Below, in pieces: positions 16,436 through 36,372 of a stretch of 64,000 nucleotides of DNA. Where the stretch lies: assembly GCA_041690295.1 (NCBI GenBank), contig JAWLHR010000002.1, forward strand, positions 32,001 to 96,000, given 5' to 3'. This stretch comes from Bdellovibrionales bacterium (GTDB taxonomy: Bacteria > Bdellovibrionota > Bdellovibrionia > Bdellovibrionales > UBA1609). The stretch's first letter is position 1. The number at the start of each line of letters is the position of its first letter. The position numbers and the translations under genes were made by a program. Under the pieces are notes generated by a model. It was not told the DNA's origin, ran no database searches, and was given only the letters and a program-made list of their open reading frames with translations.

Positions 16436-17824
16436 ATGGAATTGAATGAATTAAGCGGCAAACGGATTCTTATTGTCGGCTTGGCCAAAACGGGCGTGTC
16501 GTTGGCCCATTTGCTGACTCGCTATGGCGTTCAGGTCACCATCTCCGATCACAAGTCGAAAGCCGAACTGTCAGGATTCCTTGAACAGTTGGAAGGCCTG
16601 AACGTCACTTTGGAGTTGGGCGGGCATACGCCGAAAACCTTTTTGAACCAGGACCTGATCATTCTCAGCCCCGGGGTTCCGCCGCATTTGAAAATTTTCG
16701 ATTACGCGCGCTCGCAGGGTGTTCAGGTGACCGGCGAGATGGAGTTTTCGGCGCAGTTCGTGAATGAACCGATCGTCGCCGTCACGGGCACCAATGGAAA
16801 AACCACGACCACCCATTTGATTCACACCTTCCTCACCGAGTCGGGGATCAAATCCTGGATTGGTGGAAACTTCGGCGAGCCTTTGAGCGAATACCTGAAT
16901 AAAGGCGAAAAGGCCGATGTGCTCGTGCTTGAAGTTTCCAGCTTCATGCTGGAGCACGTGCAGAAGTTTAAACCGACGAATATCGTTTTCACCAACTTGG
17001 CGGAAAATCACCTCGATCGTTACCGCACGATGGAAGAATACGTGAACGCCAAACGGAAGATCTTTCTCAATACGAACGGCAAAACCACAAGCATCTTGAA
17101 CGCCGATGACAACGCGGTCGTGGAATTGGCCCGGGATCCGATGGTTCAACAAGGCCGGATCTTTTACTTCTCACGTAAACCCATTCTTGAGCCGCAGATC
17201 ATGGAAATCGGCGGCGCCGTGACGATCAAGAACCAGGTGCGGATGCGCACTCACGCCCGCCCGGAAATCGAGTACTACTCGGTGGAAAATACCAAAATGC
17301 GTGGGAAACACTCTCACGAAAACATCATGGCCGCCATCCTGGCCGCCCGCGAACATGGCGCCAAGCACGAAGTCATTCAGCAGGTCATTGAGACTTACAA
17401 AGGAATGCCCCATCGCTTGGAGTACGTGCGCAAGGTCGGTGGCGTTGAGTTTTATAACGACTCGAAAGCCACCAATGTGCATGCGGTGATGCGCGCGTTG
17501 GATGCGTTTGATGAAAACGTGATTCTCATCATGGGCGGAAAAGACACCAACCTGAACTACGCTCCGCTTCGCGATAAAATTCAACGTAAGGTGAAAACGC
17601 TGATTTTGGTGGGTGAGGCGAAAGAACGCATCAACCGCGATATAGGCGATTACGCCGAAACCTTCTTGATCGGAACTTTTGAGGAAGCCGTGTTGATCGC
17701 CTACCAGAAATCACGCATCGGCGACACGGTTCTGCTCTCTCCCGGAGCTTCGAGCTTTGACATGTTCGATTCCTATGTGGAGCGCGGGAATTACTTCAAA
17801 GAGATCGTGAACAAGTTTAAGTGA
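16436..17824 (+). CDS. murD: UDP-MurNAc-L-Ala-D-Glu ligase
   Basis: ILSPGV, AVTGTNGKTTT, LEVSSF, NHLDRY, YNDSKATN, LLSPGASSFD. Confidence 0.97.
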   Translation: MELNELSGKRILIVGLAKTGVSLAHLLTRYGVQVTISDHKSKAELSGFLEQLEGLNVTLELGGHTPKTFLNQDLIILSPGVPPHLKIFDYARSQGVQVTGEMEFSAQFVNEPIVAVTGTNGKTTTTHLIHTFLTESGIKSWIGGNFGEPLSEYLNKGEKADVLVLEVSSFMLEHVQKFKPTNIVFTNLAENHLDRYRTMEEYVNAKRKIFLNTNGKTTSILNADDNAVVELARDPMVQQGRIFYFSRKPILEPQIMEIGGAVTIKNQVRMRTHARPEIEYYSVENTKMRGKHSHENIMAAILAAREHGAKHEVIQQVIETYKGMPHRLEYVRKVGGVEFYNDSKATNVHAVMRALDAFDENVILIMGGKDTNLNYAPLRDKIQRKVKTLILVGEAKERINRDIGDYAETFLIGTFEEAVLIAYQKSRIGDTVLLSPGASSFDMFDSYVERGNYFKEIVNKFK

Positions 17825-17829
17825 TCGGA

Positions 17830-18570
17830 TCAGCTTTCCGAGGCGCGAACAATCATGCGCGCCGGAGTTGAATCTGATTCTTCGGTGAAATCTTCATCCG
17901 TGTGCTCTTCCATTTCTTTTATGGCGTAGTGCTGGTTGAGTCCTTTGATCGGATTCACCAGAAAAACCAATGGAGTTGAACGCAACGCCGAGCGCCGACC
18001 GTTGCGTTCGATGATCGGCTGGCCGCTGAGAGCGTTGATCGAAACGGAATATTCAAACTTTCTCACCAAAACTTCCGCCGGATCAAAGGATTTAACGGTG
18101 ATAAAGCTATCACCCGCCGAAAGAGTCATCGTTGTGAACTCCTGAAGGCGAAGCCGCACTCCGCCGAATCCCAGTTGAACGTGGTGATTTTTGCGCAAAA
18201 CCACGAGAGTGTTGGATTCAGTTTCAACTGCTGATCCACCATGGAATTGAAATCCGGCTCGGGAAAACCTTCCGGCGTAAAGCGCCGTTTTGTCCACGAT
18301 CTGGCTTGACGGCGTGACGGCGGACCAGCGGTCTTTTAAGTGTCTTTTGGCCCGGACGTCATTCTTGGTGAAGGTGATTTCCCCGACTCCGTACTTTAAG
18401 GGAGCTGGACTGGAGATGGGTTGAGGCTCCGGCCGGGAAGGAAAATCGTTATAGAGAAGATCCAGACTTATGGCCAAGGCGAAAGCCGCGCCTATTGAGA
18501 CGACAACTTCAGGAAACGTATATTTTCTAACTGTTTGGATCACGATGTTGATATCGGCGGTGGGGGCCAC
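17830..18570 (-). CDS. Membrane-anchored FecR-like beta-strand domain protein
   Basis: TM segment, then VGEITFTKNDVR...W.....I.....LY.G..S.A...F..GS......NT.V.L pattern resembling FecR domains; start uncertain. Confidence 0.5.
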   Translation of the reverse strand: MAPTADINIVIQTVRKYTFPEVVVSIGAAFALAISLDLLYNDFPSRPEPQPISSPAPLKYGVGEITFTKNDVRAKRHLKDRWSAVTPSSQIVDKTALYAGRFSRAGFQFHGGSAVETESNTLVVLRKNHHVQLGFGGVRLRLQEFTTMTLSAGDSFITVKSFDPAEVLVRKFEYSVSINALSGQPIIERNGRRSALRSTPLVFLVNPIKGLNQHYAIKEMEEHTDEDFTEESDSTPARMIVRASES

Positions 18571-18607
18571 TCATTTAACTTTATCTGGTCTATCGTTTGA
18601 TCCAGGT

Positions 18608-21600
18608 TTATCTAAAAAAGCCATCCGTGGCACGGTGAAACTGTTGAACCCGGTTGCGCAAGCTTGAGGGAACGGCCGGGGTCAACAGAGGTTCACGAAT
18701 CGATAATTGAGTATCCACATCCACATAAGGCCACTGATCGCGCGGTTGTTGGGCGATATCCGCGAGATGGTTTTCGGCCTCATCCAAAAAGCGCGTCATG
18801 GCCCGAATTTCCGATTTCACAAAATGAGACATCGATCGGTCGAGCTGACGGTCAAAACTTTCGCTGAACGGAATCAACGGATAACCACGGCTGCGCGGTG
18901 AGCGGACCCGGAAATAGTTTTCACCGCCCCTGAAGACGGTCTGCCGCATCGGGCGCGCGCCCGGCATGGACGTGCCGTTTTGCTCTTCATCCCAGGTTTG
19001 ACCCAGTTGCTCATTGTCCATCATGAGAACGACAAAATCATAAAGTCCCCATGTGTCCTGTACACGCTTGAACTCTTCGTCCGTGAACAGGAATCTCTTG
19101 TGCAAGTGCATGCGCACCCAATCGATCCGGCTGTTATGATTGAGGGTGGCCATCAGTGACTTCTCAAACGGCGTGAATCGCAGATACTCCATGATCCGCT
19201 CGTGCAGCTGGAGCACTTTTTCCGTGGTGACTTCCGACTCTCCGTAAAGCTCATGGTCAAGCCTGTAGGTTGAAATCAGGCTTTTTAACAGTTCGGAGTG
19301 ATTCGATAGCGGGTAAGGTGTGACCAAATCCCAGAAAAGATATTTGGCCCGCTGATAGAAATAAGTTTTAAGCACGGAAGCCACGAACTCATCCTCGGAT
19401 TCGGTGAACGGAATGAATCTAATGAGGGCGTGGCGTACATGGTTCACATCCACGTCCAGACGTTCACCGAACTCGATTTGCAGGTGGGGCGCCAATTGGT
19501 TCATGTAGCGGCTGATCCGAATCCACAAGTCGATATCGCTGACCGTGTATCCGGTTTCGGTGATGCGATCCAGCCCTTTGAAATCGCTCGGCAGTCCGGA
19601 GAACCGGATCGAGTTCATGATCTGTTCCCGCTCGACCTCGGAGATCTCGGGCGCGCGCAGTTTTTTGATCGAACGATGAACGCTCCGCAAGTAATCGATT
19701 TCCATGCGAAGGGATTTTTCAACGTAATCTTTAATCGACAGTCCAAGCTTGATGTAACAGAAGGCGAATTCGCGATGGGCGTAGTTGGCCAACTTGGAGA
19801 CCTCTTCGCGCTTGGCCCGGATCTGACGCAGATAGGTTCGGGTCTTGCTCGTTCTTCGCGTGAGTTCCGCGCTTAAACGGGCGCCGCTGAAACCTTCGGC
19901 GGGAAGGATGAATTTCTCAAGCATCTCGGAATAGGTGGCGATCATCGCCTCACCCATCCGCTCAAGCGAGCCAAGGTCCAATCGCGCGATCTCGATGACC
20001 TCGTTGAAATCCATGTCGGCGTAGCTCAGGCCGAATCTGATCTTGCCATCCGCATCGGCGTTTTTCGTGGCCATGCCGTTGTAGATGTCAAAAGGTAAGG
20101 CTCCGTAATAGGGGGTTTGTTTGAGGTCGGCGAAATAAATTTTCCGGCGCGCTTTGGGCCCGCCCGAAAGTTCGCGGCAAAGGTTCACGAAGTCACGGGC
20201 TTTGGCCGTTTCTTGCAAGCGCTTCGGTATGCGCGTGAGCGCTTCGTTGACTTGGTTCCACTGACCTTCGATGATACGACGAATCGAATCGGAGATGAAA
20301 TCATCGACGTCGATCTTCACCGACGCGAAAAGACCCGTGCGCACGGCCATGTCGAAGGAGTGCAGCACGCCGAAATGATTGGGTATGGAGATGTCGTTGG
20401 AGTAAGGGAAAAGCGGCGGAAGCCGGCCTTCCAGCAACCAGCGGATCAATTCCGCCGATGAGAACGATTTACCGAAAGCGGGAATGTAGATCTCGAAATT
20501 CTTTTTCGATAAAAGATGAAAGAGAATCATCATGTGCGGGTAAGTGGCCGCGCGTGAGATGGTTCGCGGAACGGATTCGAACAAACTCTTGATTTTATCT
20601 AGTTCGACGGTGTCCTCGCGGGTGACCAATAAAGCGAAGCCTTTGAGCGGAAGCGCGCGGGACTCGAACTCACTCCAGATATTTCGAACGGTGGCCGTCT
20701 CCGACAAAGCATGACGAAGTAAAGCGTCGGTGCCCACGGGCGCCGTGAAGATTTCGCTCGCCTTGCGCGTGCTTTCCATAAGGGCGCGGAGAAACTGGAT
20801 CCGCAGATAATTCTCGATCCCGTCGCGGGCCCGGCGGGCGTCGATGTTCAAACCTTTGAGCAATATCGCGGCGGATTCGGCATCCAGTGTTTGGGTCATG
20901 ACGGCATCGAGCACGAACTGCATTTCATCGTAAACCGATGAGATTCGTCCGCTGACCGCCGCCGGAAAAAAGTTCTTCTGGTTTTGCAGCTGTTTGGTCG
21001 TGCGCACGATTCCGTGCGGATGATTCTTCATTTTCTCCATCCAGGACGTTAAATCCGGATGTGCGCGGCCACGATCATCCTTGAAATAACCGGCGCGAGC
21101 CACGACTTCGAGGATCGATTTTTTGGCTGGATCGTTCAAAGCGAAATTTTCATTGGCCAGCAAATGCCAGGGTTTGACGGAATCCAAAAAACGGCGCGCC
21201 TGCTCCTTATCCGTCAACTTTTGCGCAGCCCCCGTGAAAGCGGTTAAAATCAATGAACGCGCCCGATCCAGGTCCTTCTGTTCCTCGGCGGAAGTCGCCT
21301 GGGAGGGAAGAGCCAGGAGGAGATCCATCATCTCCTGATCCCAAAGTTTGTTCTTCAGTTCGATGGCGATCAGAAGCAAGCGTAGACGGTGTTCACGGGA
21401 GCGGGCCGCGATATTGCGAATCACGGTGGACGAGTTCGCCGCCCGGCTGAAATAGCGAAGTCCCGTGCAACTGTCCCGATAGTCTCCGCAATCCAAGAGC
21501 ACGGCCCGGGTGTAAAGTTCGCCGATCCGCTGCATTTCGGGCCGCCGCCAATCCGATTCGGAAAGATTAAGCAAAAGCCGGTTGAAAACCAACAACTCGT

Positions 21601-21907
21601 CACGAGTGGACCGTTCCGTCAGCGAAGCGGCCCGGCGAATGCGATTTTCATCCAGAACCCGCGCGGAGAGAGGGACGATGACTTCTTTTAATGGATCTTT
21701 CGCATTTTGAAATTGGGATTCCCAGGCCATGGCTTCGGCGCTCGGTCGGTCGGAGGCCGAAGGTTCAGTGGCTGACGGGGACCCGTCTTGCGCACGGACG
21801 TCACCCTCATGCCGATGAATCGGCTTGCCCTTCTCGGTGCACGACACCGAGATCAGGATCGGGATCAGAATGAGTATTCGGGTTAAGCGCAACACAAATT
21901 CCCTCAA
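18608..21907 (-). CDS. Large predicted lipoprotein of unknown function (1099 aa), paralog of 22743-26285
   Basis: Signal peptide with lipobox-like ISVSC; helical-looking body; collinear similarity to the 1180-aa neighbour; start overlaps the stop of the upstream gene. Confidence 0.8.
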   Translation of the reverse strand: MREFVLRLTRILILIPILISVSCTEKGKPIHRHEGDVRAQDGSPSATEPSASDRPSAEAMAWESQFQNAKDPLKEVIVPLSARVLDENRIRRAASLTERSTRDELLVFNRLLLNLSESDWRRPEMQRIGELYTRAVLLDCGDYRDSCTGLRYFSRAANSSTVIRNIAARSREHRLRLLLIAIELKNKLWDQEMMDLLLALPSQATSAEEQKDLDRARSLILTAFTGAAQKLTDKEQARRFLDSVKPWHLLANENFALNDPAKKSILEVVARAGYFKDDRGRAHPDLTSWMEKMKNHPHGIVRTTKQLQNQKNFFPAAVSGRISSVYDEMQFVLDAVMTQTLDAESAAILLKGLNIDARRARDGIENYLRIQFLRALMESTRKASEIFTAPVGTDALLRHALSETATVRNIWSEFESRALPLKGFALLVTREDTVELDKIKSLFESVPRTISRAATYPHMMILFHLLSKKNFEIYIPAFGKSFSSAELIRWLLEGRLPPLFPYSNDISIPNHFGVLHSFDMAVRTGLFASVKIDVDDFISDSIRRIIEGQWNQVNEALTRIPKRLQETAKARDFVNLCRELSGGPKARRKIYFADLKQTPYYGALPFDIYNGMATKNADADGKIRFGLSYADMDFNEVIEIARLDLGSLERMGEAMIATYSEMLEKFILPAEGFSGARLSAELTRRTSKTRTYLRQIRAKREEVSKLANYAHREFAFCYIKLGLSIKDYVEKSLRMEIDYLRSVHRSIKKLRAPEISEVEREQIMNSIRFSGLPSDFKGLDRITETGYTVSDIDLWIRISRYMNQLAPHLQIEFGERLDVDVNHVRHALIRFIPFTESEDEFVASVLKTYFYQRAKYLFWDLVTPYPLSNHSELLKSLISTYRLDHELYGESEVTTEKVLQLHERIMEYLRFTPFEKSLMATLNHNSRIDWVRMHLHKRFLFTDEEFKRVQDTWGLYDFVVLMMDNEQLGQTWDEEQNGTSMPGARPMRQTVFRGGENYFRVRSPRSRGYPLIPFSESFDRQLDRSMSHFVKSEIRAMTRFLDEAENHLADIAQQPRDQWPYVDVDTQLSIREPLLTPAVPSSLRNRVQQFHRATDGFFR

Positions 21908-22746
21908 AACGCGTAATTCATCATCAATCGAAAAATCCGGCGGTACTCATCCACATACCAGAGCCGGATGTAGCCATCGTCCGTGAAACCGCCGTTGTCA
22001 TAAGACAAGGTGGCGGTGAAATTGTTCCAGGTTTTAGAGATACTGAACGTGCTGGTGTAAGAATAACCGACGAAGTTATCGAGGTAGCGGGTGACTTTGG
22101 CGCCGAAAGCGTAAGTCGCCTTGTACGTGCGGGCAAACCGTAAATCATTGCGCCATTTGTAAATGAAGAAATGGTCGGGGTTGGCGGTGCCTTTCGAATT
22201 TTCGCGATAAGTGTTGATCAGTTTGGCCGTGTCCAGCGTATGCGACATGCTGTAGCGCTTGTTGAAAAAAAAGAACTGAATGTTCCCGGCGCTGCCGATC
22301 AAGGCGCGATGACCTTCAAGCCGCGCATCCTCGTCCCAGAGCGGTTGACCATAGACCGTGAATCCCCAGCTGTGTTTCTCGAAGGCCGGCGCGAGATAGG
22401 AGACGTTGGCCGCCGTACTGGGATAGAGCACTTCGGTGTAGCCTTGTTCCTCACCTTTGGGAATTTGGCCGTTGATCGTGTCAGCCTTAAGGTTCAGATT
22501 CAAACCGAGACTCCAGTTCTTGGAATATGTGTAGTCCACCGTCGCGCCCAGGACATGCGAGTAAGTGCGGGGCGAACGCGAGTCGGCGAAGTCGCTGGAG
22601 ACTCCGTAAAGCACCGAACCATTGTAATGGTTCAGGGCCGCGCGTTCCTCGGGCAAAGGGAGGACTCCTTCCCGGGTTTTCGCGCCGGCTGGTGCCGAGG
22701 TGGCGGCCAGGATCGCAATTAAGGTGATGAGGCCCACTCGGCTCAT
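21904..22746 (-). CDS. Predicted outer-membrane beta-barrel protein (280 aa)
   Basis: Signal peptide, alternating aromatic/polar beta-strands, C-terminal LMMNYAF (terminal Phe, BAM signal-like); ATGA overlap with upstream gene. Confidence 0.7.
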   Translation of the reverse strand: MSRVGLITLIAILAATSAPAGAKTREGVLPLPEERAALNHYNGSVLYGVSSDFADSRSPRTYSHVLGATVDYTYSKNWSLGLNLNLKADTINGQIPKGEEQGYTEVLYPSTAANVSYLAPAFEKHSWGFTVYGQPLWDEDARLEGHRALIGSAGNIQFFFFNKRYSMSHTLDTAKLINTYRENSKGTANPDHFFIYKWRNDLRFARTYKATYAFGAKVTRYLDNFVGYSYTSTFSISKTWNNFTATLSYDNGGFTDDGYIRLWYVDEYRRIFRLMMNYAF

Positions 22747-25700
22747 GGGACCTTCACTTTCTCCCGGATGCGATAAAAGTCATTGGTCTGAGAAGTAAAC
22801 TGTTTAATAAAGCTGTTCAGGTCGTCGCGCTTGTAGGAATCCAGGAAATACGTGTCGCCTTTGATATACCAATATTTTTCGATCTGGCCTTCGAGGAAGA
22901 ACGGGCGGCTGAGTTTCATTTGCAGCTCGCTGGCTTCTTCTTTTCGGGCCAATCCTTTTCCGATTTCACCCAGATGATTGATTTGGCTCAAATGGTTGAA
23001 GAGTTCGCTCACGCGGCTCATTCGGCGCAAGACCGGCTCGCGGAACACTTCGCGAACGGCCAGGTTCACATACTTGATATCCTTCTTTTGACCGTTTCGC
23101 GCCGCCAGGTCATTCACCGTCCGCGGTTCGAAGACGAAGGTCTGCAGGTTATTCAACTGTTTCGCGAACTCGAGCGCCTCGTACATCGGGCCTTTATCAA
23201 TAGTCAGCTTGCCCTCGCTGTAAGCTGATTTCATGAGTTCGTGGAAAAGAGGCAAGCGCGTGCGGTAGTCAGGTTCAAAGATGCGGCCTTCAACCTCTTT
23301 CTTGTCGTAAATTCCATCGACGCCGAAATCCCGCGCGTTAAGCACGTCGAATTCATCCATCGATTGATCGGCCATGGCGGTCAGGTAGGCGCTGGTCACC
23401 TGTTCTTTGGTGACTTCATAGGTTTCCTTGCCGTCCTGAATGGGGCCGAGAAGATAAAATCGAACCAGTGTGTTGGCATAATCCCTCAGCGGATTCGATC
23501 TGGAGTAGAAACGGCGCCAGTCGATGTAGGAGCCGGTTTTGCCGTTGAGAGCCACCATGCCCTGGCGGATGAAATCGTCGCGATCTCCGCGGAAATGAAG
23601 CGGAATGGACAAACCTTTCGCCACCATATCGTCGCGGACCAATCCTTCCGGCATGAAAATCGATACCGGCCGCGGTTTCACCCGATCCGTGCCGTAAAGC
23701 TCAACCTCTCTTGCGGTCGGATTGGCGAAAATGTCGCGTTCAATTCGCGATTTGATTCGCATAAAGAGATCGTATTTCGACATCCGGTAGCTCAAGCCCT
23801 CGATGCGGTCGAACCTGAAGCCCTTGCTTTCTCCAAAGTGGGTTTCGTTAATTTCTTTGATCCGGGCTTCCAATTCGTTGGCATCCTGGATCTTGAACAG
23901 AGGTTCGATCAGGTCGTAGACCTGGCCCAAATGCAATCGCTCTTCATGGTAGATGCGATTGGCCCGGCGACGCTCAACCTCACGTATGGTTCGCAAGCAA
24001 TCCGCGTAATATTGGTGCTTGGATAAGAATCGCCGCGCGAGACGCGCTTTGAGTGATTCAAGCTCGCGCAAATTCTCGTAAGCGCGGGCGGTGAATTCAT
24101 TGGGCTCACCACGTTTTTTGCCGGTTTTCTCCAGTTCATTCTCGAGGATTTCCAGCATGACACGGATGTAGATCGTCCGGCGTTCGAGGCGGTCCTGAAT
24201 CACATTGGCGATACGGCCCGAAGCGGTGACCGCGTGCTTGAGAACGGCGTGAATGGACGAGTCGTCCAATCCCGCGTAGTTGTACTTGTGCAGATCGAGA
24301 AAATTAATTTCGATATTGGGTGCGTAACGGCTGATCCCAAGCTCGTAGTCGCAAATGTTTTTCAATGCCGCGCCCCGGGCGTCACCGGTGGTCTGCCGTT
24401 CATAATCAGCGATGTCGGTGCGCAGTTCATCAAGGTCATTATCAACGTACTTGGCGAAAATCAGGTCAAAGAATTTGGCTTGCTCCGAGCCTCCGGTGCT
24501 CGTGTTGCCTTCTTTAGAGGTGAAAGAGTGGAGCGCGCCCGTGGTCAGGAGATATTCCCACGCGTAAAGCAGCATGGGTCGGGTCAGCATCTCCGCGTCT
24601 TTTCCGAAGCGGAACCAGGGGCTGGCCACCTGGCCGTCGAAGAAAGCGTCAAGAATCTGGTCGGCATCGATTTCAAACCGGCCCCACCACGAATGAACAA
24701 TGATTTTTCCCTTCATCTTGGCGAGGAAGTAATTCATGACGATCATGTTGGGAAAAACGGACAGGTAATGAATGTTCCGGTTCACCGCCCGGATCAACTG
24801 AACCGTTTTATAGTACTCGTCCATTGAAGAAGCCCGACCCGAGCGGAAATAAGTTCCCATCATGCGCTCAAGCAACTCGATCTGGGATTGCATGAAATGC
24901 CACTGGCTGGTCAGGTCCCGGCTTCGGGTGACGGCGTGCTCGAAAACCTCGCTGCTGGCGATTCCTGAATGATAAACCTGCTCCGTCATGAAACGATTGG
25001 TCTTCACCACCATATAGGCCATGTTGATCCGGATGTAATCGGCCACCATCTTCGGAAGTTCAGTCCTGACGGTTTCGGGATTGGCGTTATTCAACACCAT
25101 TTCCACATCACTCGAGCCAAGATGTCCGCGATAGAGTTTGTCGACCACGAAGAAGAGTTCGTTAAAGAACTTGCCGTCACGGGCTTCGATGCGAGCGACC
25201 AATTCGGAAAGGCCCAAATTCTCCACCAAACGCGGAACCAGTTTGATCTCATCTTTCATTTTAACGAAAGGCAGACCGACGCTGTCGTTTTCTTCCTGTG
25301 ATGCCAGAATCGCTTCTTTGACGGCCTCACTGAGTTCCTTCTTGCTCGCGTCTTTATAGAGGCAGCATTGGGCGCCAAGGTTGAACATCACACGGGTTCC
25401 ACGCTGGAAAACATCGGCCTGCTTGTTGGAGTAGGTCCACGGGTTGAAATTTTCAACAAAGGCGCGGAATTCGGGATCGTTGGGATCTTTGGGTTGAAAT
25501 TTGGCGATGATGGTTTCAAAAATTTTAGCGTGACTGTCGCCGATGTAACTTGAAGCCATCGCGCTTTCGCCCTGGCTGATGAGCGCGGCGAACACTCGGG
25601 CGTACTTTAAGTAAGCGAAGGCGAAATCGGGATCGTCATACCGGTTGCGCTTGTAAACCGCCATGGCCAAAAGGCGATAGCGCTCTTCGATATCGGCGCG

Positions 25701-26285
25701 GCACTGGGCGCTGTTCGCCACGCAGAGGATGGGACTGTTTTTATGAGCCTCGAGTTCGCGTTTGATACGCGAGTCATACTCTTTGGCCAAAAACGTGAGA
25801 ATCCGCGTGTGTCGGGTGTCGCGGCTGAAGAGTTCGGCGTTATGGCAGTTTTCCTTTAGATCGCGGCTACAGCCGGAGAACAATGTCTGATAATACCGGT
25901 TGCGCAGATCTTTGAATTCGCTTGAGCTTTCGCCCGCTTCCAGGAGTGTCAGGAAAGCGGCGTTGAAAATCTGGATCATGTGGGTCATGCGAAGCGTGCG
26001 GTATTGAGGATCCTCAATGAACTTGGAGTTGAGAACGTATCCCGAAAGCGGCTTGAGAATGGTCTCCATGAACTGGCTGCGATCGCCGTTCAACTTCGCA
26101 TAGGCTTCTTTGATATCGAACTTGTTGAATGAACTTTCTTCCACGCTCTCGTCCCGAGGCGTGGCTTGGGGCGTCCATTCGCGTTTGCCTTCGTGTTCAA
26201 CCTTCGCCCGGTTTTTAACCGGGCATGCGGTGAGGATCGGCGTGATCAGGAGAAGTGATATGTAAAGTCTGATATTCATGATCAC
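22743..26285 (-). CDS. Large predicted lipoprotein of unknown function (1180 aa)
   Basis: Lipobox LTAC after a hydrophobic signal; no recognisable catalytic motif; overlaps both neighbours by 4 nt. Confidence 0.8.
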   Translation of the reverse strand: MIMNIRLYISLLLITPILTACPVKNRAKVEHEGKREWTPQATPRDESVEESSFNKFDIKEAYAKLNGDRSQFMETILKPLSGYVLNSKFIEDPQYRTLRMTHMIQIFNAAFLTLLEAGESSSEFKDLRNRYYQTLFSGCSRDLKENCHNAELFSRDTRHTRILTFLAKEYDSRIKRELEAHKNSPILCVANSAQCRADIEERYRLLAMAVYKRNRYDDPDFAFAYLKYARVFAALISQGESAMASSYIGDSHAKIFETIIAKFQPKDPNDPEFRAFVENFNPWTYSNKQADVFQRGTRVMFNLGAQCCLYKDASKKELSEAVKEAILASQEENDSVGLPFVKMKDEIKLVPRLVENLGLSELVARIEARDGKFFNELFFVVDKLYRGHLGSSDVEMVLNNANPETVRTELPKMVADYIRINMAYMVVKTNRFMTEQVYHSGIASSEVFEHAVTRSRDLTSQWHFMQSQIELLERMMGTYFRSGRASSMDEYYKTVQLIRAVNRNIHYLSVFPNMIVMNYFLAKMKGKIIVHSWWGRFEIDADQILDAFFDGQVASPWFRFGKDAEMLTRPMLLYAWEYLLTTGALHSFTSKEGNTSTGGSEQAKFFDLIFAKYVDNDLDELRTDIADYERQTTGDARGAALKNICDYELGISRYAPNIEINFLDLHKYNYAGLDDSSIHAVLKHAVTASGRIANVIQDRLERRTIYIRVMLEILENELEKTGKKRGEPNEFTARAYENLRELESLKARLARRFLSKHQYYADCLRTIREVERRRANRIYHEERLHLGQVYDLIEPLFKIQDANELEARIKEINETHFGESKGFRFDRIEGLSYRMSKYDLFMRIKSRIERDIFANPTAREVELYGTDRVKPRPVSIFMPEGLVRDDMVAKGLSIPLHFRGDRDDFIRQGMVALNGKTGSYIDWRRFYSRSNPLRDYANTLVRFYLLGPIQDGKETYEVTKEQVTSAYLTAMADQSMDEFDVLNARDFGVDGIYDKKEVEGRIFEPDYRTRLPLFHELMKSAYSEGKLTIDKGPMYEALEFAKQLNNLQTFVFEPRTVNDLAARNGQKKDIKYVNLAVREVFREPVLRRMSRVSELFNHLSQINHLGEIGKGLARKEEASELQMKLSRPFFLEGQIEKYWYIKGDTYFLDSYKRDDLNSFIKQFTSQTNDFYRIREKVKVP

Positions 26286-29200
26286 TTCTCCAGGTATTCG
26301 GGGGTAATCGCGAGCCAGTAACCGTTCAAGAGCGCGGCGGATGCGGCGATCTGTCCGATTCCGCGAATGGCTTCATCGCAAACACGGCGCATGGATTTCA
26401 CGGGGTATTTGCCGGGGATGCGATCCTGCGCCCATTTTTCATACTTTTCAAAGGCCTGATCGACGGATTTATAGAACTGGCCGATCTTTTCTTTACCGAC
26501 CTCTTCAGCGATGCCCGGCGGGATGTAAAACCCTTCGAACGCGTCTTGGTTTCCGTCGTTTCCAATATCAAAGTAACTGCTCAAACCATTGCCGGCGAAT
26601 CCATCCACGCAAAGGCTGGCGATCTCGTTATGTCGCTCCGTCAGCGCGGCCTTAACGCTTTCATCAACAAGCTCGTCGCCTTCTTCGTAATCATAAGCCA
26701 CCTTGTAAGCGATCACGTAAGCGTCGTTGCCTGAGTAGAAACGGAGTTTGGTGACGGGATAGAGGAACATGCCGTTGGCCCAGACGAAAACTTCACCTTT
26801 CGGTAAAATGTAAACATCCCGGGCCGTGGCGCTTTGACCGGTCACGAAATCGAAAACCGTGGCGGTGAACTTCTTGTAATGATCCGCTTTCACATTGGAA
26901 TTGGCGTCCGGTTTGGTCGGCTTGATCAAAACCGCCACAATGCTCAATTGGAATTCGGTCTGGCTGTTCAAAAGATCATTGAACTCACGAGGCAGCTTTG
27001 CGGCGTCGTTGGTTCCCCAACGGCTCAGTCCCATGAAACCACCGGTCATGAGAAGCGTGCGTCCGATATTCGTGGTGTCGTTCAAGCCCGTGGCGGCGAA
27101 CCGCATGTTCTGCTGAACGGCGTCCGAAATGATCTTGGTGTAAGTGCGCGGATAAAGCGTGCGATAGAGGAAACGGTTTTCCTCATGATCGTAATAAGGA
27201 TTGGGGAAGAATCCGCGTCCCAGCATCAAGAACGGTTGCGGGAAAGTCAGGTTGAAGAGCGCGGAAATTTTAAACGGCAGGTTGGACATCTGATACCAGC
27301 TGCCGAAGATGTGTCCCCAGTTGCGGTCCGCATCACCTTCGAGATAGCCGCCGCTGACATAACGTTTGTTATGATCGATCTTCGTGTAATCGGCATCGGG
27401 CAGATTCAGGAAGAAGCGGAACTCCTCAAGAGCCACGCGGTTGGCGCGGCAAAGATCGATCATCCCTTTAACGGCGAAGATTTCCTGTAAAACACTGCCT
27501 TTTTTGATCCGCTCGGGATTGAAACAAGCTTGTTCGAATTCCATCAGCGCGTCTTTGTCCATGCGCAAGCGGTTCCAAAGCGGTTTCAATTGCGGATCGC
27601 TGCGCAGGCGCCGGCGCATTTCATCGTAAAACAACCGGACGCGGGTGAACGTATCGAGCGAAGAGAGCCACAGACGGCCTTCCGCTTCAAAAGAGTTCGC
27701 CCCGCCACCGACCATGGAGTAAAGGTTCGAGAGCAGATTGTCGCTGACCAGTTCGAAGTACGACCGCACGATGTCCTCGGCCTTAGAGCCACGATCCCAG
27801 CGGTTACAGAAGGGATCCGCGCCCAAGCTCGCCTCGTAGTCGTTACAAGCGGGGAAGTAGGCGGTCGGCAGATTCTTCACTTGGCCGGACTGAAGGCGAA
27901 GTTGCGACATCGTGGGAATCTTTCCGCTCACCGGAACTCGGGCGAAAACGAAGTCATCCGCTTCACGATCGTAAGTGGCGTACTCTCCTTTATATATGTA
28001 GCGAAGCACAAGTTCGTCATGGGGGCCGGGGTTCAAATCCTTGGCGGGGATCATCATTTCCACGCGACCGCTCCGATAACCCATCACCGAGGTGTAGTTG
28101 GTGAATTCATTCTGGGCCGTAGCCTTCTCGCTCAGTTCCTTCACGAAACGCGAGGGAACCGTGCCTTCTTCGGGGACGATGTTTTCTTTGAACTGGTGTC
28201 CAAGTCCCAGGAAGTGACCGATTTCATGGAGACTCAAATCCATGACCACGCTATCGAGCAATTCGGGAAGCGGCCGGGTTTTACGGGCCGGGGAGTTCAT
28301 CCAGGAGCCCGACTTGTTGGCCACGGTCAGGCCCTCTTCGATGAAGAAGGAGGAAGAGGGTTCTTTTATTTTGGACATCAACTTCGCCAAATTCGGTTTT
28401 TGTTCCGAGGCGTGCCCATCGACCGCCGCATGTCTGAGCAGGGAAGAGCCGAAGTGATCGATCAGCTTGCGGGAGGCGAAATAGTTTCTAACGGTTGTCG
28501 TCTCGGCGGTGGCTTGGCCGATCAAGTCGTTCAAGATCATCCCCAGTGCGGGATTTTGCGACTGGATGTTTTTCAACTGCTCGTTCAAAGCTTCAACTTG
28601 AACGCGAGCCAATGCGGTCGGGTTCGACGACAGTCGCTGAATCTCGCTGCGTAAGAAACTTTGATATTCCGTCATGAGATTGTTCATGAGGGCGGGACGC
28701 GTGCTGAAATCGATCTTGGTGAAGTTGTCCGCCACCGAGAACGTCTTCGGCAGGAAGCCGGCGATCACGCCGATCGGAGAAATCGCATCGTCCGCGCGCT
28801 CCGCCGTCTTGGCGAAGCCGGAAAGACCTGACTCCAGAGGCGTGTAGCGGTTGATGTAATCTTCAATCATGCCGCCGTAAATATTCACGCTGCCCCAGAG
28901 GATTTTTCCGTTACGAACATCGGCGTGAGCCATTCCGATTCCGAGCGGCGAATAGATGGAAAGCCGGCGGTCACTGATCCAATTGAACGAAGGATAGCGC
29001 AAGTCAAACGGATGCTTCAGATTTTTCACCACCGGTTGAAACGCCACATGATCTTTGGGAATGGCTCCGATTTTTCTCAAAGTTTCGTTCCACTTTTCAA
29101 AGGCCGCTTTCACCGTGGCTTCATGTTCGGTCGGCACGCCGTTAAGGTAAATGGTGTGAGTCTTGGTCAAATCCCAGCGGGCGGCGTAAAGTTCGGGCTC

Positions 29201-29950
29201 GATGCCCTCGACTTTGCGACCCATGACGTGAAGCACGTTCATGAAGCGCGCATTTTCCTGGTGGTAAGGGATCTTTTTAAAGTTGGGATCATGATCAAAA
29301 GCGAGGAAGTTCACCCGGAACTTACCTTGAAGTTCACCGTCGGTCCCTTTCATTTCCGAAACCATATGGGTCGTGAAGCCCAAAAAGTTGCGCTCGAAGT
29401 CCCACTCTATTTCCGAAACCGAAGAACTTACATGCGTGCCAAGCGGATAAAAGTTGTGAACCGACATGTTCATCAGATCCAGCTTCATTTTCGGGCGCGC
29501 GGACCAGTGGCTGCGTTGATCATTCTCGATCCAGGTGTTGGTGTCGCGACCATGTTCATCTTTTTGGCGCTCGTAGTAGAAGTGCTTCGTGATGGGGATT
29601 TTTAAAATTTCAGCCCAGCGGCTGCGATCGTCATAAAACGAAGGGTGAATTCTTCGGGCGATCAGATAGTTCTCGGTGATTTCAAATTCGACGTTGCAAT
29701 GGAGGGCCGCGTTCACCAGAGCCGTCATCGCCATTTCGCCGTAAAGACCCTGACCGATTTCCGGAGCCCACGCGCATAAAAACGTTTTCGGTTTCCCATC
29801 AGGATTCACGAAAAAGCTTTTATCGACGGCCTCTTCGACCGGGGGTGGTGTTTCGGCGGCTCGCTCTTTAAACAATTTGGTGCAAGCCAGCGGGCTGGCG
29901 AACAAAAGAACAAATATGGCGGGACCGATGGGGCCTAATTTTATGCGCAT
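26282..29950 (-). CDS. Lipoprotein zinc-dependent metalloprotease (metzincin-like)
   Basis: Start ATG 29950 with GAGGG; lipobox PLAC; HEIGHFLGLGHQF zinc motif, downstream TSVMGY Met-turn; DLRYPSFNW and CNRWDRG resemble DUF4953-type proteases. Confidence 0.85.
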   Translation of the reverse strand: MRIKLGPIGPAIFVLLFASPLACTKLFKERAAETPPPVEEAVDKSFFVNPDGKPKTFLCAWAPEIGQGLYGEMAMTALVNAALHCNVEFEITENYLIARRIHPSFYDDRSRWAEILKIPITKHFYYERQKDEHGRDTNTWIENDQRSHWSARPKMKLDLMNMSVHNFYPLGTHVSSSVSEIEWDFERNFLGFTTHMVSEMKGTDGELQGKFRVNFLAFDHDPNFKKIPYHQENARFMNVLHVMGRKVEGIEPELYAARWDLTKTHTIYLNGVPTEHEATVKAAFEKWNETLRKIGAIPKDHVAFQPVVKNLKHPFDLRYPSFNWISDRRLSIYSPLGIGMAHADVRNGKILWGSVNIYGGMIEDYINRYTPLESGLSGFAKTAERADDAISPIGVIAGFLPKTFSVADNFTKIDFSTRPALMNNLMTEYQSFLRSEIQRLSSNPTALARVQVEALNEQLKNIQSQNPALGMILNDLIGQATAETTTVRNYFASRKLIDHFGSSLLRHAAVDGHASEQKPNLAKLMSKIKEPSSSFFIEEGLTVANKSGSWMNSPARKTRPLPELLDSVVMDLSLHEIGHFLGLGHQFKENIVPEEGTVPSRFVKELSEKATAQNEFTNYTSVMGYRSGRVEMMIPAKDLNPGPHDELVLRYIYKGEYATYDREADDFVFARVPVSGKIPTMSQLRLQSGQVKNLPTAYFPACNDYEASLGADPFCNRWDRGSKAEDIVRSYFELVSDNLLSNLYSMVGGGANSFEAEGRLWLSSLDTFTRVRLFYDEMRRRLRSDPQLKPLWNRLRMDKDALMEFEQACFNPERIKKGSVLQEIFAVKGMIDLCRANRVALEEFRFFLNLPDADYTKIDHNKRYVSGGYLEGDADRNWGHIFGSWYQMSNLPFKISALFNLTFPQPFLMLGRGFFPNPYYDHEENRFLYRTLYPRTYTKIISDAVQQNMRFAATGLNDTTNIGRTLLMTGGFMGLSRWGTNDAAKLPREFNDLLNSQTEFQLSIVAVLIKPTKPDANSNVKADHYKKFTATVFDFVTGQSATARDVYILPKGEVFVWANGMFLYPVTKLRFYSGNDAYVIAYKVAYDYEEGDELVDESVKAALTERHNEIASLCVDGFAGNGLSSYFDIGNDGNQDAFEGFYIPPGIAEEVGKEKIGQFYKSVDQAFEKYEKWAQDRIPGKYPVKSMRRVCDEAIRGIGQIAASAALLNGYWLAITPEYLEK

Positions 29951-29972
29951 AGAATTTCCCTCGCGGTTATTC

Positions 29973-29988
29973 TGCAGGGGTAGTGCCA
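29973..29988 (-). promoter_or_regulatory. Sigma54 (-24/-12) promoter for the antisense lipoprotein/protease operon
   Basis: Minus strand TGGCAC-TACCC-CTGCA with exact GG-N10-GC spacing, 22 nt upstream of ATG 29950; AT-rich tract further upstream. Confidence 0.7.
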
Positions 29989-30161
29989 CCGTTCCCTGAA
30001 TTTCTTTTAAACATTTAAAACGACTAGGTTTTTTAAGATAAATAAACGGTCTCCACGCGGAAAAATCGGCGTAACTTGTGGGAATCGCCGTGATTTTCCA
30101 CCTGGACCGTTGACAGGGACCGACAATTTTTGGCTTTCCTAATGATTTAGAGCACTTAGGG

Positions 30162-30197: not shown

Positions 30198-31310
30198 ATG
30201 CGGTTGGATCGCGGAATACTGCTGGCGGTGTTCTTTTTAATCGGGCTCGGGCTGGTTCAGGTCTATAGTTCCAGCTACATCTTCGCCACGGAAACCTATG
30301 GCGACGGCCTTTATTTTTTCCGCAAGCAAGTGCTTTTCGCCTTTCTCGCCATCGTGGCTTTGTTCACCAGCTGCTATTTGCCGTGGCGGATTTCGGAAAG
30401 ATTCGGCCTTGTCTGTTGGTTCCTCGCCTTACTTTGCGTGATCGGAACTTTCATTCCCGGCTTGGGCGTCAAAGCCGGCGGAGCGAGCCGCTGGTTGATG
30501 CTTCCCTTCGGTTATCGGTTTGAGCCCGGAGAACTTTTGCGAGTGACGTATCCATTCGCCTTGGCCCCTTTGATGGGCGCGTTTTCGCGCGGGCAAATGG
30601 ATCGTGCCTGGTGGACGCGGTTGGCTTTGGTGTTGTCGCCGATGCTTTTGCTTTATTTGCAGCCCGACTTCGGCAGTTTCGTCATCGTGTTATTGCTCGT
30701 GGGTTGTTTGTTCATCGCTTTTGGACTGCGCTGGCGCTGGATTTTGGCCGGACTCGCCGTGACTCTGCCGGCGTTGGCCATCATGATTCTCACTTCACCG
30801 TATCGGCGCTCGCGGATCGAAGCGTTTTTGAATCCGTGGGCCGACCCTTCGGAAAAAGGATTTCAAGTCATTCAAAGTTTGGTGAGCTTTTACTCGGGCG
30901 GTCTCACCGGCGTGGGCTTGGGGCAGGGCCAGGGAAAACTTTTTTTTCTGCCCGAGGCGCACACGGATTTCACCTTGGCGGTTCTTGGTGAAGAGATGGG
31001 ATTCGTCGGCTTTTTTATTTTGTTGATGGTGTATGGATTTTTGGTGTTCCGCGGGTTTCAAATCGCGCTTCAATTCAAGCGGCATAAAGAGCGCGCGCTC
31101 GTGCTTTCGTTTTCACTGCTTTTGGTGATTTCGGTGTTCATCAATGTGGGAGTGGCGCTGGGACTGTTACCGACCAAAGGGTTGACTCTACCGCTTTTAA
31201 GTTATGGCGGGAGTTCGCTGCTCGCCACCGGTTTGATGTTGGGTTGGATCTTGAATCTGGAGAGAGCGAGTGGGCAGCCGCTGACGTTCCGTGAACGAGA
31301 GATTGATTAG
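30198..31310 (+). CDS. ftsW: SEDS peptidoglycan polymerase FtsW
   Basis: VYSSS, GASRW, LQPDFG, GLGQG, LPEAHTDF, PTKGLTLPLLSYGGSS. Confidence 0.96.
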   Translation: MRLDRGILLAVFFLIGLGLVQVYSSSYIFATETYGDGLYFFRKQVLFAFLAIVALFTSCYLPWRISERFGLVCWFLALLCVIGTFIPGLGVKAGGASRWLMLPFGYRFEPGELLRVTYPFALAPLMGAFSRGQMDRAWWTRLALVLSPMLLLYLQPDFGSFVIVLLLVGCLFIAFGLRWRWILAGLAVTLPALAIMILTSPYRRSRIEAFLNPWADPSEKGFQVIQSLVSFYSGGLTGVGLGQGQGKLFFLPEAHTDFTLAVLGEEMGFVGFFILLMVYGFLVFRGFQIALQFKRHKERALVLSFSLLLVISVFINVGVALGLLPTKGLTLPLLSYGGSSLLATGLMLGWILNLERASGQPLTFREREID

Positions 31311-33760: not shown

Positions 33761-34648
33761 GTGGATTTTCTCGAGCAAGTTTCATTAAAGGAATACTCAT
33801 GGTGGAAAATCGGCGGTCCGGCGGATCTTTTCTGCCTGCCCCAATCCATCGAAGAGGTTCAGCAAGCGGTTCGCTACGCTCACGAGAAAAATCTGCCGAT
33901 CACGGTTCTGGGCGGCGGGACGAACGTTTTGATCAGCGATAAGGGTATCGCGGGATTGGTGATTTGTTTAAGGAAGCTGGTCGGCGTGAATGTTTCCGAA
34001 GACGCCGAATCAGTTCGAGTCGACGCGCTCGCGGGAAGCCCGAAATCCGAACTCACGAAAATTTTTCTGAGAAAGAAAATGGCTCCAGCTTTGTTCTTGT
34101 GCGGTTTGCCCGGTGATGTGGGTGGCGGCGTGGTGATGAACGCCGGCGTGGGTGAAAATATAAAACCCAGGGAATTTGTTGAAATTGTGGAGTGGGTGGA
34201 GTGCGTGAAGATTCCCGACGGCACGGTTCAACGGTTTCAGAAAGATGAGCTGCAGTGGCATTATCGGCATTCGAAAGGCTGGGAGCCTGGCATTATTGTA
34301 CGTGCGGGCCTGGCGTGGCCGAATGAGCCTGATGACACGATTCCTCGAAAAGTGACCGAAGCGACGAAGAACCGCCGGGGAAGACAGCCTTTGGAATGGC
34401 CGAGTTGCGGAAGCACGTTCAAGAATCCGGAAGGGCATAAAGCTGGCGCGCTAATTGAAAAGGCCGGATTGAAAGGATATCGCGTGGGAGGCGCTGAGAT
34501 TTCGACCAAGCATGCGAACTTCATCATCAATCTTGGACATGCGACAGCGGCGGACGTTGATCGCATCATTCATCATGTACAAGAGGAAGTGAGCAAGCGC
34601 TTCGGCGTGAACCTCGAAACCGAAGTGCGATATTTAGGCCGATGGTGA
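33761..34648 (+). CDS. murB: UDP-N-acetylenolpyruvoylglucosamine reductase
   Basis: KIGGPA, LGGGTNVL, PGDVGG..MNAG, PSCGSTFKNP, KHANFIIN. Confidence 0.96.
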   Translation: MDFLEQVSLKEYSWWKIGGPADLFCLPQSIEEVQQAVRYAHEKNLPITVLGGGTNVLISDKGIAGLVICLRKLVGVNVSEDAESVRVDALAGSPKSELTKIFLRKKMAPALFLCGLPGDVGGGVVMNAGVGENIKPREFVEIVEWVECVKIPDGTVQRFQKDELQWHYRHSKGWEPGIIVRAGLAWPNEPDDTIPRKVTEATKNRRGRQPLEWPSCGSTFKNPEGHKAGALIEKAGLKGYRVGGAEISTKHANFIINLGHATAADVDRIIHHVQEEVSKRFGVNLETEVRYLGRW

Positions 34649-36369
34649 CCGCTTTTTTTCTGCTGGCGCTCTTATTTTCGGGATCGGCTTGGGCGGATCA
34701 GCGGATATGCGGCAACGTTATTCTCAAAGAAGGCTCGCTTTCACTGAGCGCCAATGAAAAAATACTGATTTGCGGAAGTCCAAAGGGCGGTGAAGCGTGG
34801 AAAAGCGTTCCCTTCACCCAAGCCGAATACCATTTGCGGGTCTTTCTGCAGAACGAAGGCTATCCGCATCCGAGATTCGAAAGACACGGCGATGAGCTTT
34901 GGGTTTGGCCAGGGCCACGGCTTCGCATTCGTTCATTCCATATCAACTCGGATGTGGAAGTGATTTCGACTCAAACTCGTCGGCACGTGATCGGGCACCC
35001 GATGAGTTCCAACAAACTGAATGAGATTCAGCAATGGGTTGAAACCAGCTTGCAATCCGCCGGTTATCCTTGCGCCAAGGTCGAAGTTCGCGCTCAGGCT
35101 TGGAATCAGCACGTGGTGGTGAATGTCAAGGCGGGCCCCCGGGCTCGCATACGAAGAATCGATTGGGACGGGCGGGATGGCTTGGATCCTCGGATTTTAC
35201 AACGGTATCAGGCGTTTCGTACCGGTGAAGTTTACGATTATCGCAAAAGCCAGTTGACCATGAATCGTCTATTCAACGATGGATTGTTCGAAACGGCGCA
35301 CGTGACACCCGTTTGTGAAGGCGATCATGTGAATTTGCGCCTACGGACATCGGTCGGTAAGCCGCGATTGGTGACGTTCGGGATCGGCGCCTCGACCGAG
35401 GAATTTCCCTTCTTGGATGTGGGCTATCGCAACGCCCGTTTGGACGCGATGGCGTCCTCGATCCATATCGGCGCGCATGTTTCGCCGCGGATTCAGAATT
35501 TGGCCGTGGGCTCGGAGCTTTATTCGTTCAAGAACTGGCCGACCCTTTTCTGGGGCCCTCGATTCAGTGCCGGCCGCGAATCGGAGCGGGAATTTGAAGT
35601 CACGCAAGCCAGAACCGGAGTCGATCTCGGGCGATATTGGGACGCTTGGGATTCACGGTTTCATCTGCGTGGCGGTCCCACATTGAACTTCGTCAATACG
35701 GTTAAAGGTATTGGTCCGGAAGAAGCTTCGTTCGTGAGTTGGGAAGCCGCGCTCTCGGCCATGAGTCATGTTTATGAGTTTAATCTGAGGGAACAATATG
35801 AAGGCTGGACCGGCCGCTTGGAATATCGCGGACAAAGGGATCGTTTAGGTTCCAAACTCAACGTTGATCGCTTCGATGTGAAGTTAAAGCATCTTTGGAA
35901 TATGGGTGGATTCGCGCCGCCGCTTTTCGTGCTCGCCAGCCGCGCTCATGCGATCGGAGTGAACGCCAATCCCGTCGATCTCCGCTCGGATCAGGAATTA
36001 TTGCCTCTGGATTATCGTATATTTTGGGGTGGTGATCAAAATTTACGCGGATTTTCGAGGCAACGCTTGAACAATGGTGAAATCGGTTTTTTAACCGGTG
36101 CTTATGCGGGTTTCGAACTCCGCCTTGTTGAGGAATTTCCCTTTCACCTTCAACCGTTCGCGCTCTTTGACGTCGCCCAATTGGGCGCTCGCCGGTTCAC
36201 GTTGGATCCACCGGTTTATCTCTCGTGGGGTGGCGGGGTTCGCTGGGCTTCGCCCATTGGCACGATTCGATTCTCCGCCGCGAAAGGCGAAATTGAAAAC
36301 ATTGATGAGACAACCTTGGCGTATCCAAAGGAATGGGTGTATTTTTTTAGTTTCGGACAGGAGTTTTGA
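34642..36369 (+). CDS. Omp85 family outer-membrane protein (TamA-like)
   Basis: Signal peptide, POTRA-like segments, GGDQNLRGF (VRGF-like lid motif), GVRWASPIG, C-terminal FSFGQEF. Confidence 0.85.
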   Translation: MVTAFFLLALLFSGSAWADQRICGNVILKEGSLSLSANEKILICGSPKGGEAWKSVPFTQAEYHLRVFLQNEGYPHPRFERHGDELWVWPGPRLRIRSFHINSDVEVISTQTRRHVIGHPMSSNKLNEIQQWVETSLQSAGYPCAKVEVRAQAWNQHVVVNVKAGPRARIRRIDWDGRDGLDPRILQRYQAFRTGEVYDYRKSQLTMNRLFNDGLFETAHVTPVCEGDHVNLRLRTSVGKPRLVTFGIGASTEEFPFLDVGYRNARLDAMASSIHIGAHVSPRIQNLAVGSELYSFKNWPTLFWGPRFSAGRESEREFEVTQARTGVDLGRYWDAWDSRFHLRGGPTLNFVNTVKGIGPEEASFVSWEAALSAMSHVYEFNLREQYEGWTGRLEYRGQRDRLGSKLNVDRFDVKLKHLWNMGGFAPPLFVLASRAHAIGVNANPVDLRSDQELLPLDYRIFWGGDQNLRGFSRQRLNNGEIGFLTGAYAGFELRLVEEFPFHLQPFALFDVAQLGARRFTLDPPVYLSWGGGVRWASPIGTIRFSAAKGEIENIDETTLAYPKEWVYFFSFGQEF

Positions 36370-36372
36370 CCA

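Follow-up and report, generated by a model that had tools for sequence, protein, structure and literature searches.

Four minus-strand genes, here called A, B, C and D, lie between murD and ftsW in a 64,000-nucleotide stretch of a Bdellovibrionales genome (contig JAWLHR010000002.1, positions 32,001 to 96,000; this whole stretch is referred to as the window), and are inherited as one unit. A encodes a metzincin lipoprotein, B and D giant lipoproteins and C an outer-membrane barrel. Neither its parts nor its gene set match a described system. As to function, we tentatively put forward that the products of the four genes form a protease complex on the surface of the outer membrane, turned on upon contact with prey: in a model predator, distant counterparts of A, and probably of C, rise at prey entry.

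Co-inheritance of the four genes

The open reading frame of A occupies positions 26282-29989 of the minus strand and encodes 1235 amino acids from a GTG, or 1222 from the ATG at 29950 that is also the database start (P0205; feature 26282..29950). B follows on the same strand at 22743-26285 (1180 amino acids; the database start, P0001 with 1178 amino acids, is an ATG two codons downstream), then C at 21904-22746 (280 amino acids) and D at 18608-21907 (1099 amino acids). The chain of four-nucleotide stop/start overlaps reported in a preliminary description of this DNA, made from the sequence alone, was confirmed at the A/B, B/C and C/D junctions (GTGA, ATGA and TTGA, respectively), and in 32 modules of the same gene order an in-frame start lies between -25 and +30 nucleotides relative to the upstream stop at 95 of 96 junctions.

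Profiles built from module members were searched, separately for each gene, in 384 whole genomes of the order, strong matches being defined by E<1e-30 for A, E<1e-10 for B/D and E<1e-15 for C; six weak B/D matches (E about 1e-4) were left out of these counts, as were weak A and C matches, many of which are paralogues of the pair type described below. A was found in 79 genomes, B/D in 77 and C in 75, with all three present in 74, and the B/D-bearing and C-bearing genomes are all nested within the A set. The five genomes without the full set are assemblies of 130-480 contigs, and each of the four genes is single-copy in the genome of the window, which is 99.9% complete. Of 401 genomes sampled evenly across the phylum, 21 yielded B/D, including two from beyond the order. 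Gene trees of 39 modules are congruent (r 0.82-0.94; one to three conflicting strong-split pairs). Co-occurrence, nested sets and tree congruence together support the four-gene unit that had been proposed from a single locus.

Among 49 A loci, 33 show the order A-B-C-D, six have the barrel before A, five are operons without a barrel gene and five are truncated loci or have a divergent D. All five genomes with barrel-less operons carry a strong C elsewhere (in G144 within a second module). Because of these five loci, and because genome G569 has two barrel-less modules and one strong barrel elsewhere, the fixed stoichiometry implied by the earlier idea of a stoichiometric machine is doubtful.

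Some loci depart from the usual layout. G025 carries three modules (L106, L107, L132), of which two adjoin each other in divergent orientation, each starting with its barrel (see also L153). In G569 (L139, L140, L183), the lone barrel has 404 amino acids and is followed by a 506-residue lipoprotein without a Pfam match. D is split in two (146 + 994 amino acids) at L097:5092-8513, by a frameshift or an assembly error, and at L131:2203-9564 a gene for a 2453-residue MAT fibre (NF053851) lies convergent, directly behind the module.

The protease and the barrel

The zinc motif of A, H575-E576-x-x-H579-x-x-G582-x-x-H585 (HEIGHFLGLGH; 28196..28228, minus strand), is invariant in 15 of 15 alignment rows, and its residues H575, E576, H579 and H585 as well as the Met-turn residue M623 (SVMGY; 28082..28084, minus strand) are invariant in 60 of 60 homologues. 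Both elements had been recognized at first reading, and by them A classifies as a metzincin with predicted protease activity. Its lipid anchor is Cys23; 59 of 60 A homologues and 145 of 150 B/D homologues retain the lipobox Cys, in agreement with the earlier designation of A, B and D as lipoproteins. In the predicted fold of A (predicted local distance difference test [pLDDT] 87.6, predicted template-modelling score [pTM] 0.85), a beta domain at the N terminus is followed by a zincin domain, which contains a helical insert that varies, and then by a large C-terminal region of helices and beta structure; the secondary structure of the model agrees with the zincin alpha/beta fold. A Foldseek search with the whole model returned nothing at E<=0.001, B. 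fragilis metalloproteinase II standing at E 0.42. A shares the zinc motif and Met-turn with PF16313 (DUF4953), the Met-zincin family of the EcxA zinc-binding domain, and three of three homologues tested (P0214, P0232, P0287) exceed its cut-off of 24.2 bits with 26-31 bits, whereas A of the window scores 15.2 bits and the match is restricted to the motif region. EcxAB-type AB5 toxins, moreover, have a small B-subunit gene adjoining that of the protease, whereas the module runs in the order A-B-C-D with no B-subunit gene beside A.

C ends in Phe (YAF), as first described, and was assigned 12 amphipathic alternating strands from its sequence, with about 35 residues before strand 1. The loops at one end of the barrel are long and conserved, the turns at the opposite end short and variable; since barrels whose C-terminal strand ends in Phe have their long loops at the outer face, the long loops of C are placed outside. 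C has no Pfam or NCBIfam match, 51 members of its family show no Pfam match to TonB-dependent transporters, and a protein atlas returned unnamed or generic barrel clusters only. The matches P0056-P0062 were left out because alignment A3 included two rows outside the C family. The best natural Protein Data Bank (PDB) match is KdgM, a 12-stranded porin, and is weak (E 0.18).

Mean conservation is 0.46 in the predicted outer loops of C versus 0.27 in its periplasmic turns, and 15 of the 21 residues conserved at 70% or more fall in the outer loops. This distribution bears on the possibility that the lipoproteins face the periplasm and serve the upkeep of the bacterium's own envelope, A trimming or degrading outer-membrane proteins at the attack-to-growth switch in the manner of BepA, with B/D as a chaperone scaffold. 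A periplasmic orientation is the default for Lol-sorted lipoproteins, the N-terminal part of B is a generic helical solenoid and the timing of the Bdellovibrio counterparts (see below) is also compatible with envelope remodelling. However, none of the residues of C conserved at 70% or more lies in a periplasmic turn, conservation being concentrated on the predicted outer face, the module is present in only 79 of 384 genomes, and peptides of the counterpart of A are listed from uninvaded prey. On balance, we find envelope upkeep unlikely.

The paralogous giant lipoproteins

B and D are paralogous, as had been proposed (20% identity, E 1e-13 to 5e-15), and belong to a family of 534 representatives at 50% identity; neither has a Pfam, NCBIfam or PDB sequence match. 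Forty-five B-type proteins and one D-type protein form a single clade (support 0.95, with midpoint root and without a clade test), a topology that points to one old duplication as the origin of B and D. D is the fastest-evolving gene of the module and B its slower paralogue. Asp occupies the +2 position in only six of the 145 B/D lipoboxes, a count that we take in favour of a surface complex.

The predicted fold of B (pLDDT 90.4, pTM 0.79) is mostly helical, with an N-terminal solenoid, helices of 35-44 residues and a predicted beta hairpin at residues 525-538 (24666..24707, minus strand) that carries an aromatic tip, W-W-G. Aromatic residues occupy this position in 45 of 45 B-type proteins, 35 of which have two, and in 28 of 45 D-type proteins. 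Cys137, Cys145, Cys643 and Cys761 are conserved in B, the best-conserved residues of the family as a whole being Cys, Trp, Pro, Phe and one Arg, and no catalytic motif is evident from this conservation. The notion that B/D derive from a dead copy of the zincin was rejected (hhalign probability about 1). Searched with the whole chain of B, Foldseek returned generic solenoids only (TMq at most 0.14) and the wide fold search reached Z 7.2 at best, for residues 44-309; the protein atlas gave no usable match. B is thus a candidate for a new fold, without a clear PDB match in its model; this is not proven, because whole-chain searches may overlook single domains.

The obligate B/D pair from what appears to be one old duplication, the long helices and the aromatic hairpin tip recall two-component alpha-pore formers such as XaxAB and YaxAB of the ClyA family, which likewise have two paralogous helical proteins per operon and a hydrophobic hairpin. 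They raise the possibility that C is a dedicated translocon releasing A, B and D, and that B and D insert into the membrane of the prey envelope as a two-component assembly, which A processes. B and D are, however, about three times longer than the ClyA-type proteins and lipidated; no such chain is among the matches listed in the whole-chain fold searches, nor any pore-forming protein among the 50 best matches of either search with B. The family-averaged hydropathy peaks at only 0.74, the lipid anchors are kept and C has no periplasmic receptor domain, all of which makes delivery into the prey improbable.

A distant counterpart in Bdellovibrio

Two-gene pairs of a barrel and a zincin, homologous to C and A, adjoin several modules and stand alone in many genomes. 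All six Bdellovibrio-family loci retrieved to look for such pairs (L174-L179) contain one. The L176 zincin is identical to Q6MIL8/CAE80895, that is, Bd3137 of B. bacteriovorus, and the L176 barrel is CAE80892, which we infer from the equal offset of three accessions to be Bd3133/Q6MIM1. In profile comparisons, mature residues 64-759 of A matched the Bd3137 family (probability 99.4, E 5.5e-21) and C matched the neighbouring barrel family end to end (probability 98.4, E 9e-15); B/D matched neither family of the pair. Judged by these profiles, A and C are distant homologues of Bd3137 and its barrel.

Bd3137, a DUF4953 Met-zincin lipoprotein, and CAE80892 are like A and C in lipobox, sigma-54-like sites and genomic slots. 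The Bd3137 locus differs in that it encodes a 1636-residue zincin with an N-terminal extra part, has no B/D genes and places two genes between barrel and zincin. Module and pair take each other's place in the same slots, which we take to be murD-ftsW (L096, L098-L102 versus L033/L162) and rnhA-addAB (L103 versus L175-L178).

In the proteome tables of PMC12546842, Bd3137 is represented by 83 unique peptides and belongs to the entry-peak cluster (log2 fold-change +1.5 at 45-60 min), its level climbing from 7.9 to reach 9.4 at 1 h and dropping to 5.8 by 7 h; Bd3133 behaves alike (4.0, 5.3 and 3.9), and the text terms Bd3137 uncharacterised. The supplement of PMC11003981 lists Bd3137 in killed, uninvaded prey (empty bdelloplasts) with a fold-change of 3.23 from two peptides; according to that paper, the MIDAS gene bd3132 goes up when prey is contacted. 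A vWA/MIDAS-type gene (weak vWA match) lies directly upstream of the L176 barrel (L176:3398-5047), at the position expected of bd3132. In the parts of the two papers concerned, Bd3137 appears in omics tables and one sentence, without a functional test. The early suggestion that the module serves prey attack is indirectly supported by this homology and entry-peak expression.

The same data bear on protein foraging, in which the surface-exposed A would cut proteins, B/D would catch or channel the fragments and C would act as a small peptide diffusion pore, making the module a TonB-free analogue of SusCD/RagAB. The match of C to KdgM, the conservation of its outer loops and the levels of Bd3137 and Bd3133, which in the tabulated time course are still high at 2 h, with feeding under way, are compatible with such a role. 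Yet both proteins have already risen at 15 min and fall from 3 h onwards, inspection by eye found no gene for a TonB-dependent or peptide transporter beside the fetched modules, and G569 makes do with one barrel for two modules. Foraging is accordingly a doubtful explanation.

Two further observations concern the pairs. The vWA/MIDAS-type gene upstream of the barrel in L176 was not seen in L175 or L177. L180 and L181 show a third arrangement (a lipoprotein of about 810 amino acids, a zincin of 1054 and a barrel), with a second zincin and barrel pair nearby in L180.

A candidate sigma-54 promoter

A sigma-54-like -24/-12 site at 29973..29988 of the minus strand matches 10 of 11 positions of the consensus. 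It lies 22 nucleotides upstream of the ATG of A; because it runs into the upstream GTG, the ATG (29950) is the more likely start. The genome of the window has rpoN, and 35 of its 1207 operon starts score 10 or more for such a site. The site recurs in the closest relative, L096, despite diverged flanks, and of 12 pair-type starts tested, 8 have a site scoring 10 of 11 ahead of them, both L176 genes among these. These occurrences are suggestive of sigma-54 control of module and pair. When 47 module upstream regions were scanned for 6-mers, no common motif other than A/T runs emerged, sensitivity being lowered because several regions were anchored on a later Cys.

Across the genome of the window (G000), the high-scoring sites lie mostly 40-110 nucleotides from the end of the scanned upstream segment, many of them before proteins with signal-peptide-like starts, and may constitute a candidate RpoN regulon of exported proteins.

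Proposed function

In the surface protease complex that we tentatively favour, a sigma-54 promoter would drive the operon and Lol would carry A, B and D to the outer membrane, where C would dock A via its conserved outer loops and may help bring it to the surface. B and D are predicted to pair into a large helical scaffold, and the aromatic hairpin of B may contact a membrane or a partner, keeping the protease against prey envelope proteins at attachment or entry. Barrel and protease would be the older, wider core, to which B and D are an add-on.

A number of points weigh against this proposal. One is the distance to the expression data: A and Bd3137 share 18% identity in the aligned part, the match ends at mature residue 759 and Bd3137 has about 450 additional N-terminal residues, while strong A or B/D matches are absent from every genome of g35, the genus with loci that match named Bdellovibrio records, so that the data come from a cousin without B/D. 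(A weak B/D match beside the Bdellovibrio zincin of L174 covers the first 100 residues only and was excluded.) The two peptides from empty bdelloplasts are thin evidence, the authors warn of contamination by burst predators, and Bd3133 is absent from the supplement files on empty bdelloplasts (PMC11003981). Of the 47 module upstream regions, only 8 contain a sigma-54-like site scoring 9 or more (shuffles, 1.1 with a maximum of 4; reverse strand, 3), and six of the eight pair-type sites come from three related genomes. The outer loops of C are longer than its turns and the topology is our own assignment from sequence. Kin share a history, because of which congruent trees do not demonstrate contact between the proteins.

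A more specific proposal is a prey-breaching machine in which the barrel exports and anchors the metzincin, and a heterodimer of B and D, 130-kDa helical lipoproteins of new fold, grips the prey outer membrane by its hairpin and brings the protease to it, Bd3133/Bd3137 being a reduced form. We consider it conceivable, with a rather low probability. We know of no account of what handles envelope proteins at the prey contact site. The Bdellovibrio entry enzymes named in the relevant parts of PMC12546842 and PMC11003981 act on peptidoglycan. If the prey-breaching proposal were true, the protein-cutting step of prey entry would become testable via Bd3133/Bd3137. In any event, the module connects giant lipoproteins of a family without annotation, and barrels of a family without a name, to a protease pair that is abundant, peaks at prey entry and occurs in a predator amenable to genetics.

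Comparison with known secretion and uptake systems

The preliminary description could assign the module to no named system, and the Pfam, NCBIfam, PDB and fold searches have likewise yielded no match that identifies one. Slam, or type XI, secretion loci resemble the module in that a barrel gene stands beside lipoprotein genes. Slam proteins, however, combine an N-terminal TPR domain with a 14-stranded barrel, whereas C has 280 amino acids, 12 strands, no TPR domain and no Pfam or NCBIfam match. Surface lipoproteins docked on the outer loops of a barrel are a feature of SusC/SusD, RagAB and the BamG-BamH-BamM canopy of Bacteroidota, to which the module would be alike if the surface protease complex is real. 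SusC is a plugged 22-stranded TonB-dependent transporter, whereas C, at 280 residues, is none, and the sequence and fold searches made with module proteins gave no match to a chain of these three systems. A literature search, whose scope left out most subscription papers, turned up no account of the module and none of its genes being under sigma-54 control.

Genomic location and neighbouring genes

The genes that flank the module, which we take from sequence features to be murD (16436-17824, plus strand) and ftsW (30198-31310, plus strand, divergent from A), belong to the division and cell wall (dcw) cluster; the closest relatives of murD are Bdellovibrionales records (up to 92-93%). The module had been described as splitting two genes that are normally adjacent. 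Across 80 murD loci of the order, ftsW follows within 300 nucleotides in 12, at 300-800 nucleotides in 32 and at more than 1.5 kb in nine, with none within 5 kb or more in 16 and 11 loci uninformative, so that close adjacency is not the rule. The gap holds varied, unrelated genes across relatives. Since it is so often filled by other genes and most other modules are located elsewhere, the location of the module there is incidental.

A role of the operon in cell division or wall synthesis, which would account for its location and with which the eight fetched relatives that have a module beside murD or ftsW agree, is largely refuted by position: these modules are in either orientation (antisense in six, sense in two, L102 and L152), most others lie elsewhere and unrelated genes occupy the same gap. 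We regard such a role as very improbable.

A recent mobile element or genomic island was considered and rejected. As first noted, no integrase or insertion sequence borders the module: the murD-ftsW gap has no integrase open reading frame, and the GC content at third codon positions of A-D (0.66-0.70) is like that of the dcw genes (0.61-0.68). Misassembly is excluded because contigs from other public runs span the murD/E, B/C and C/D junctions, A/ftsW being absent among the pieces shown.

E, a gene that we call FecR-like from a sequence pattern only (17830-18570, minus strand, 246 amino acids), had been counted as following on from the module. It is separated from it by 37 nucleotides, has no Pfam match and no homologue in the 185 fetched loci, and we do not retain it as a member. 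One paralogue of 468 amino acids is encoded elsewhere in the genome (G000:C8:100503-101906).

L066, L060 and L054 have a small lipoprotein-like gene (about 120-130 amino acids) between murD and ftsW, directly after murD. Within the dcw cluster of the window, a TamA-like gene (POTRA and Omp85) and a TamB gene lie downstream of murB, at 34642-38682 of the plus strand.

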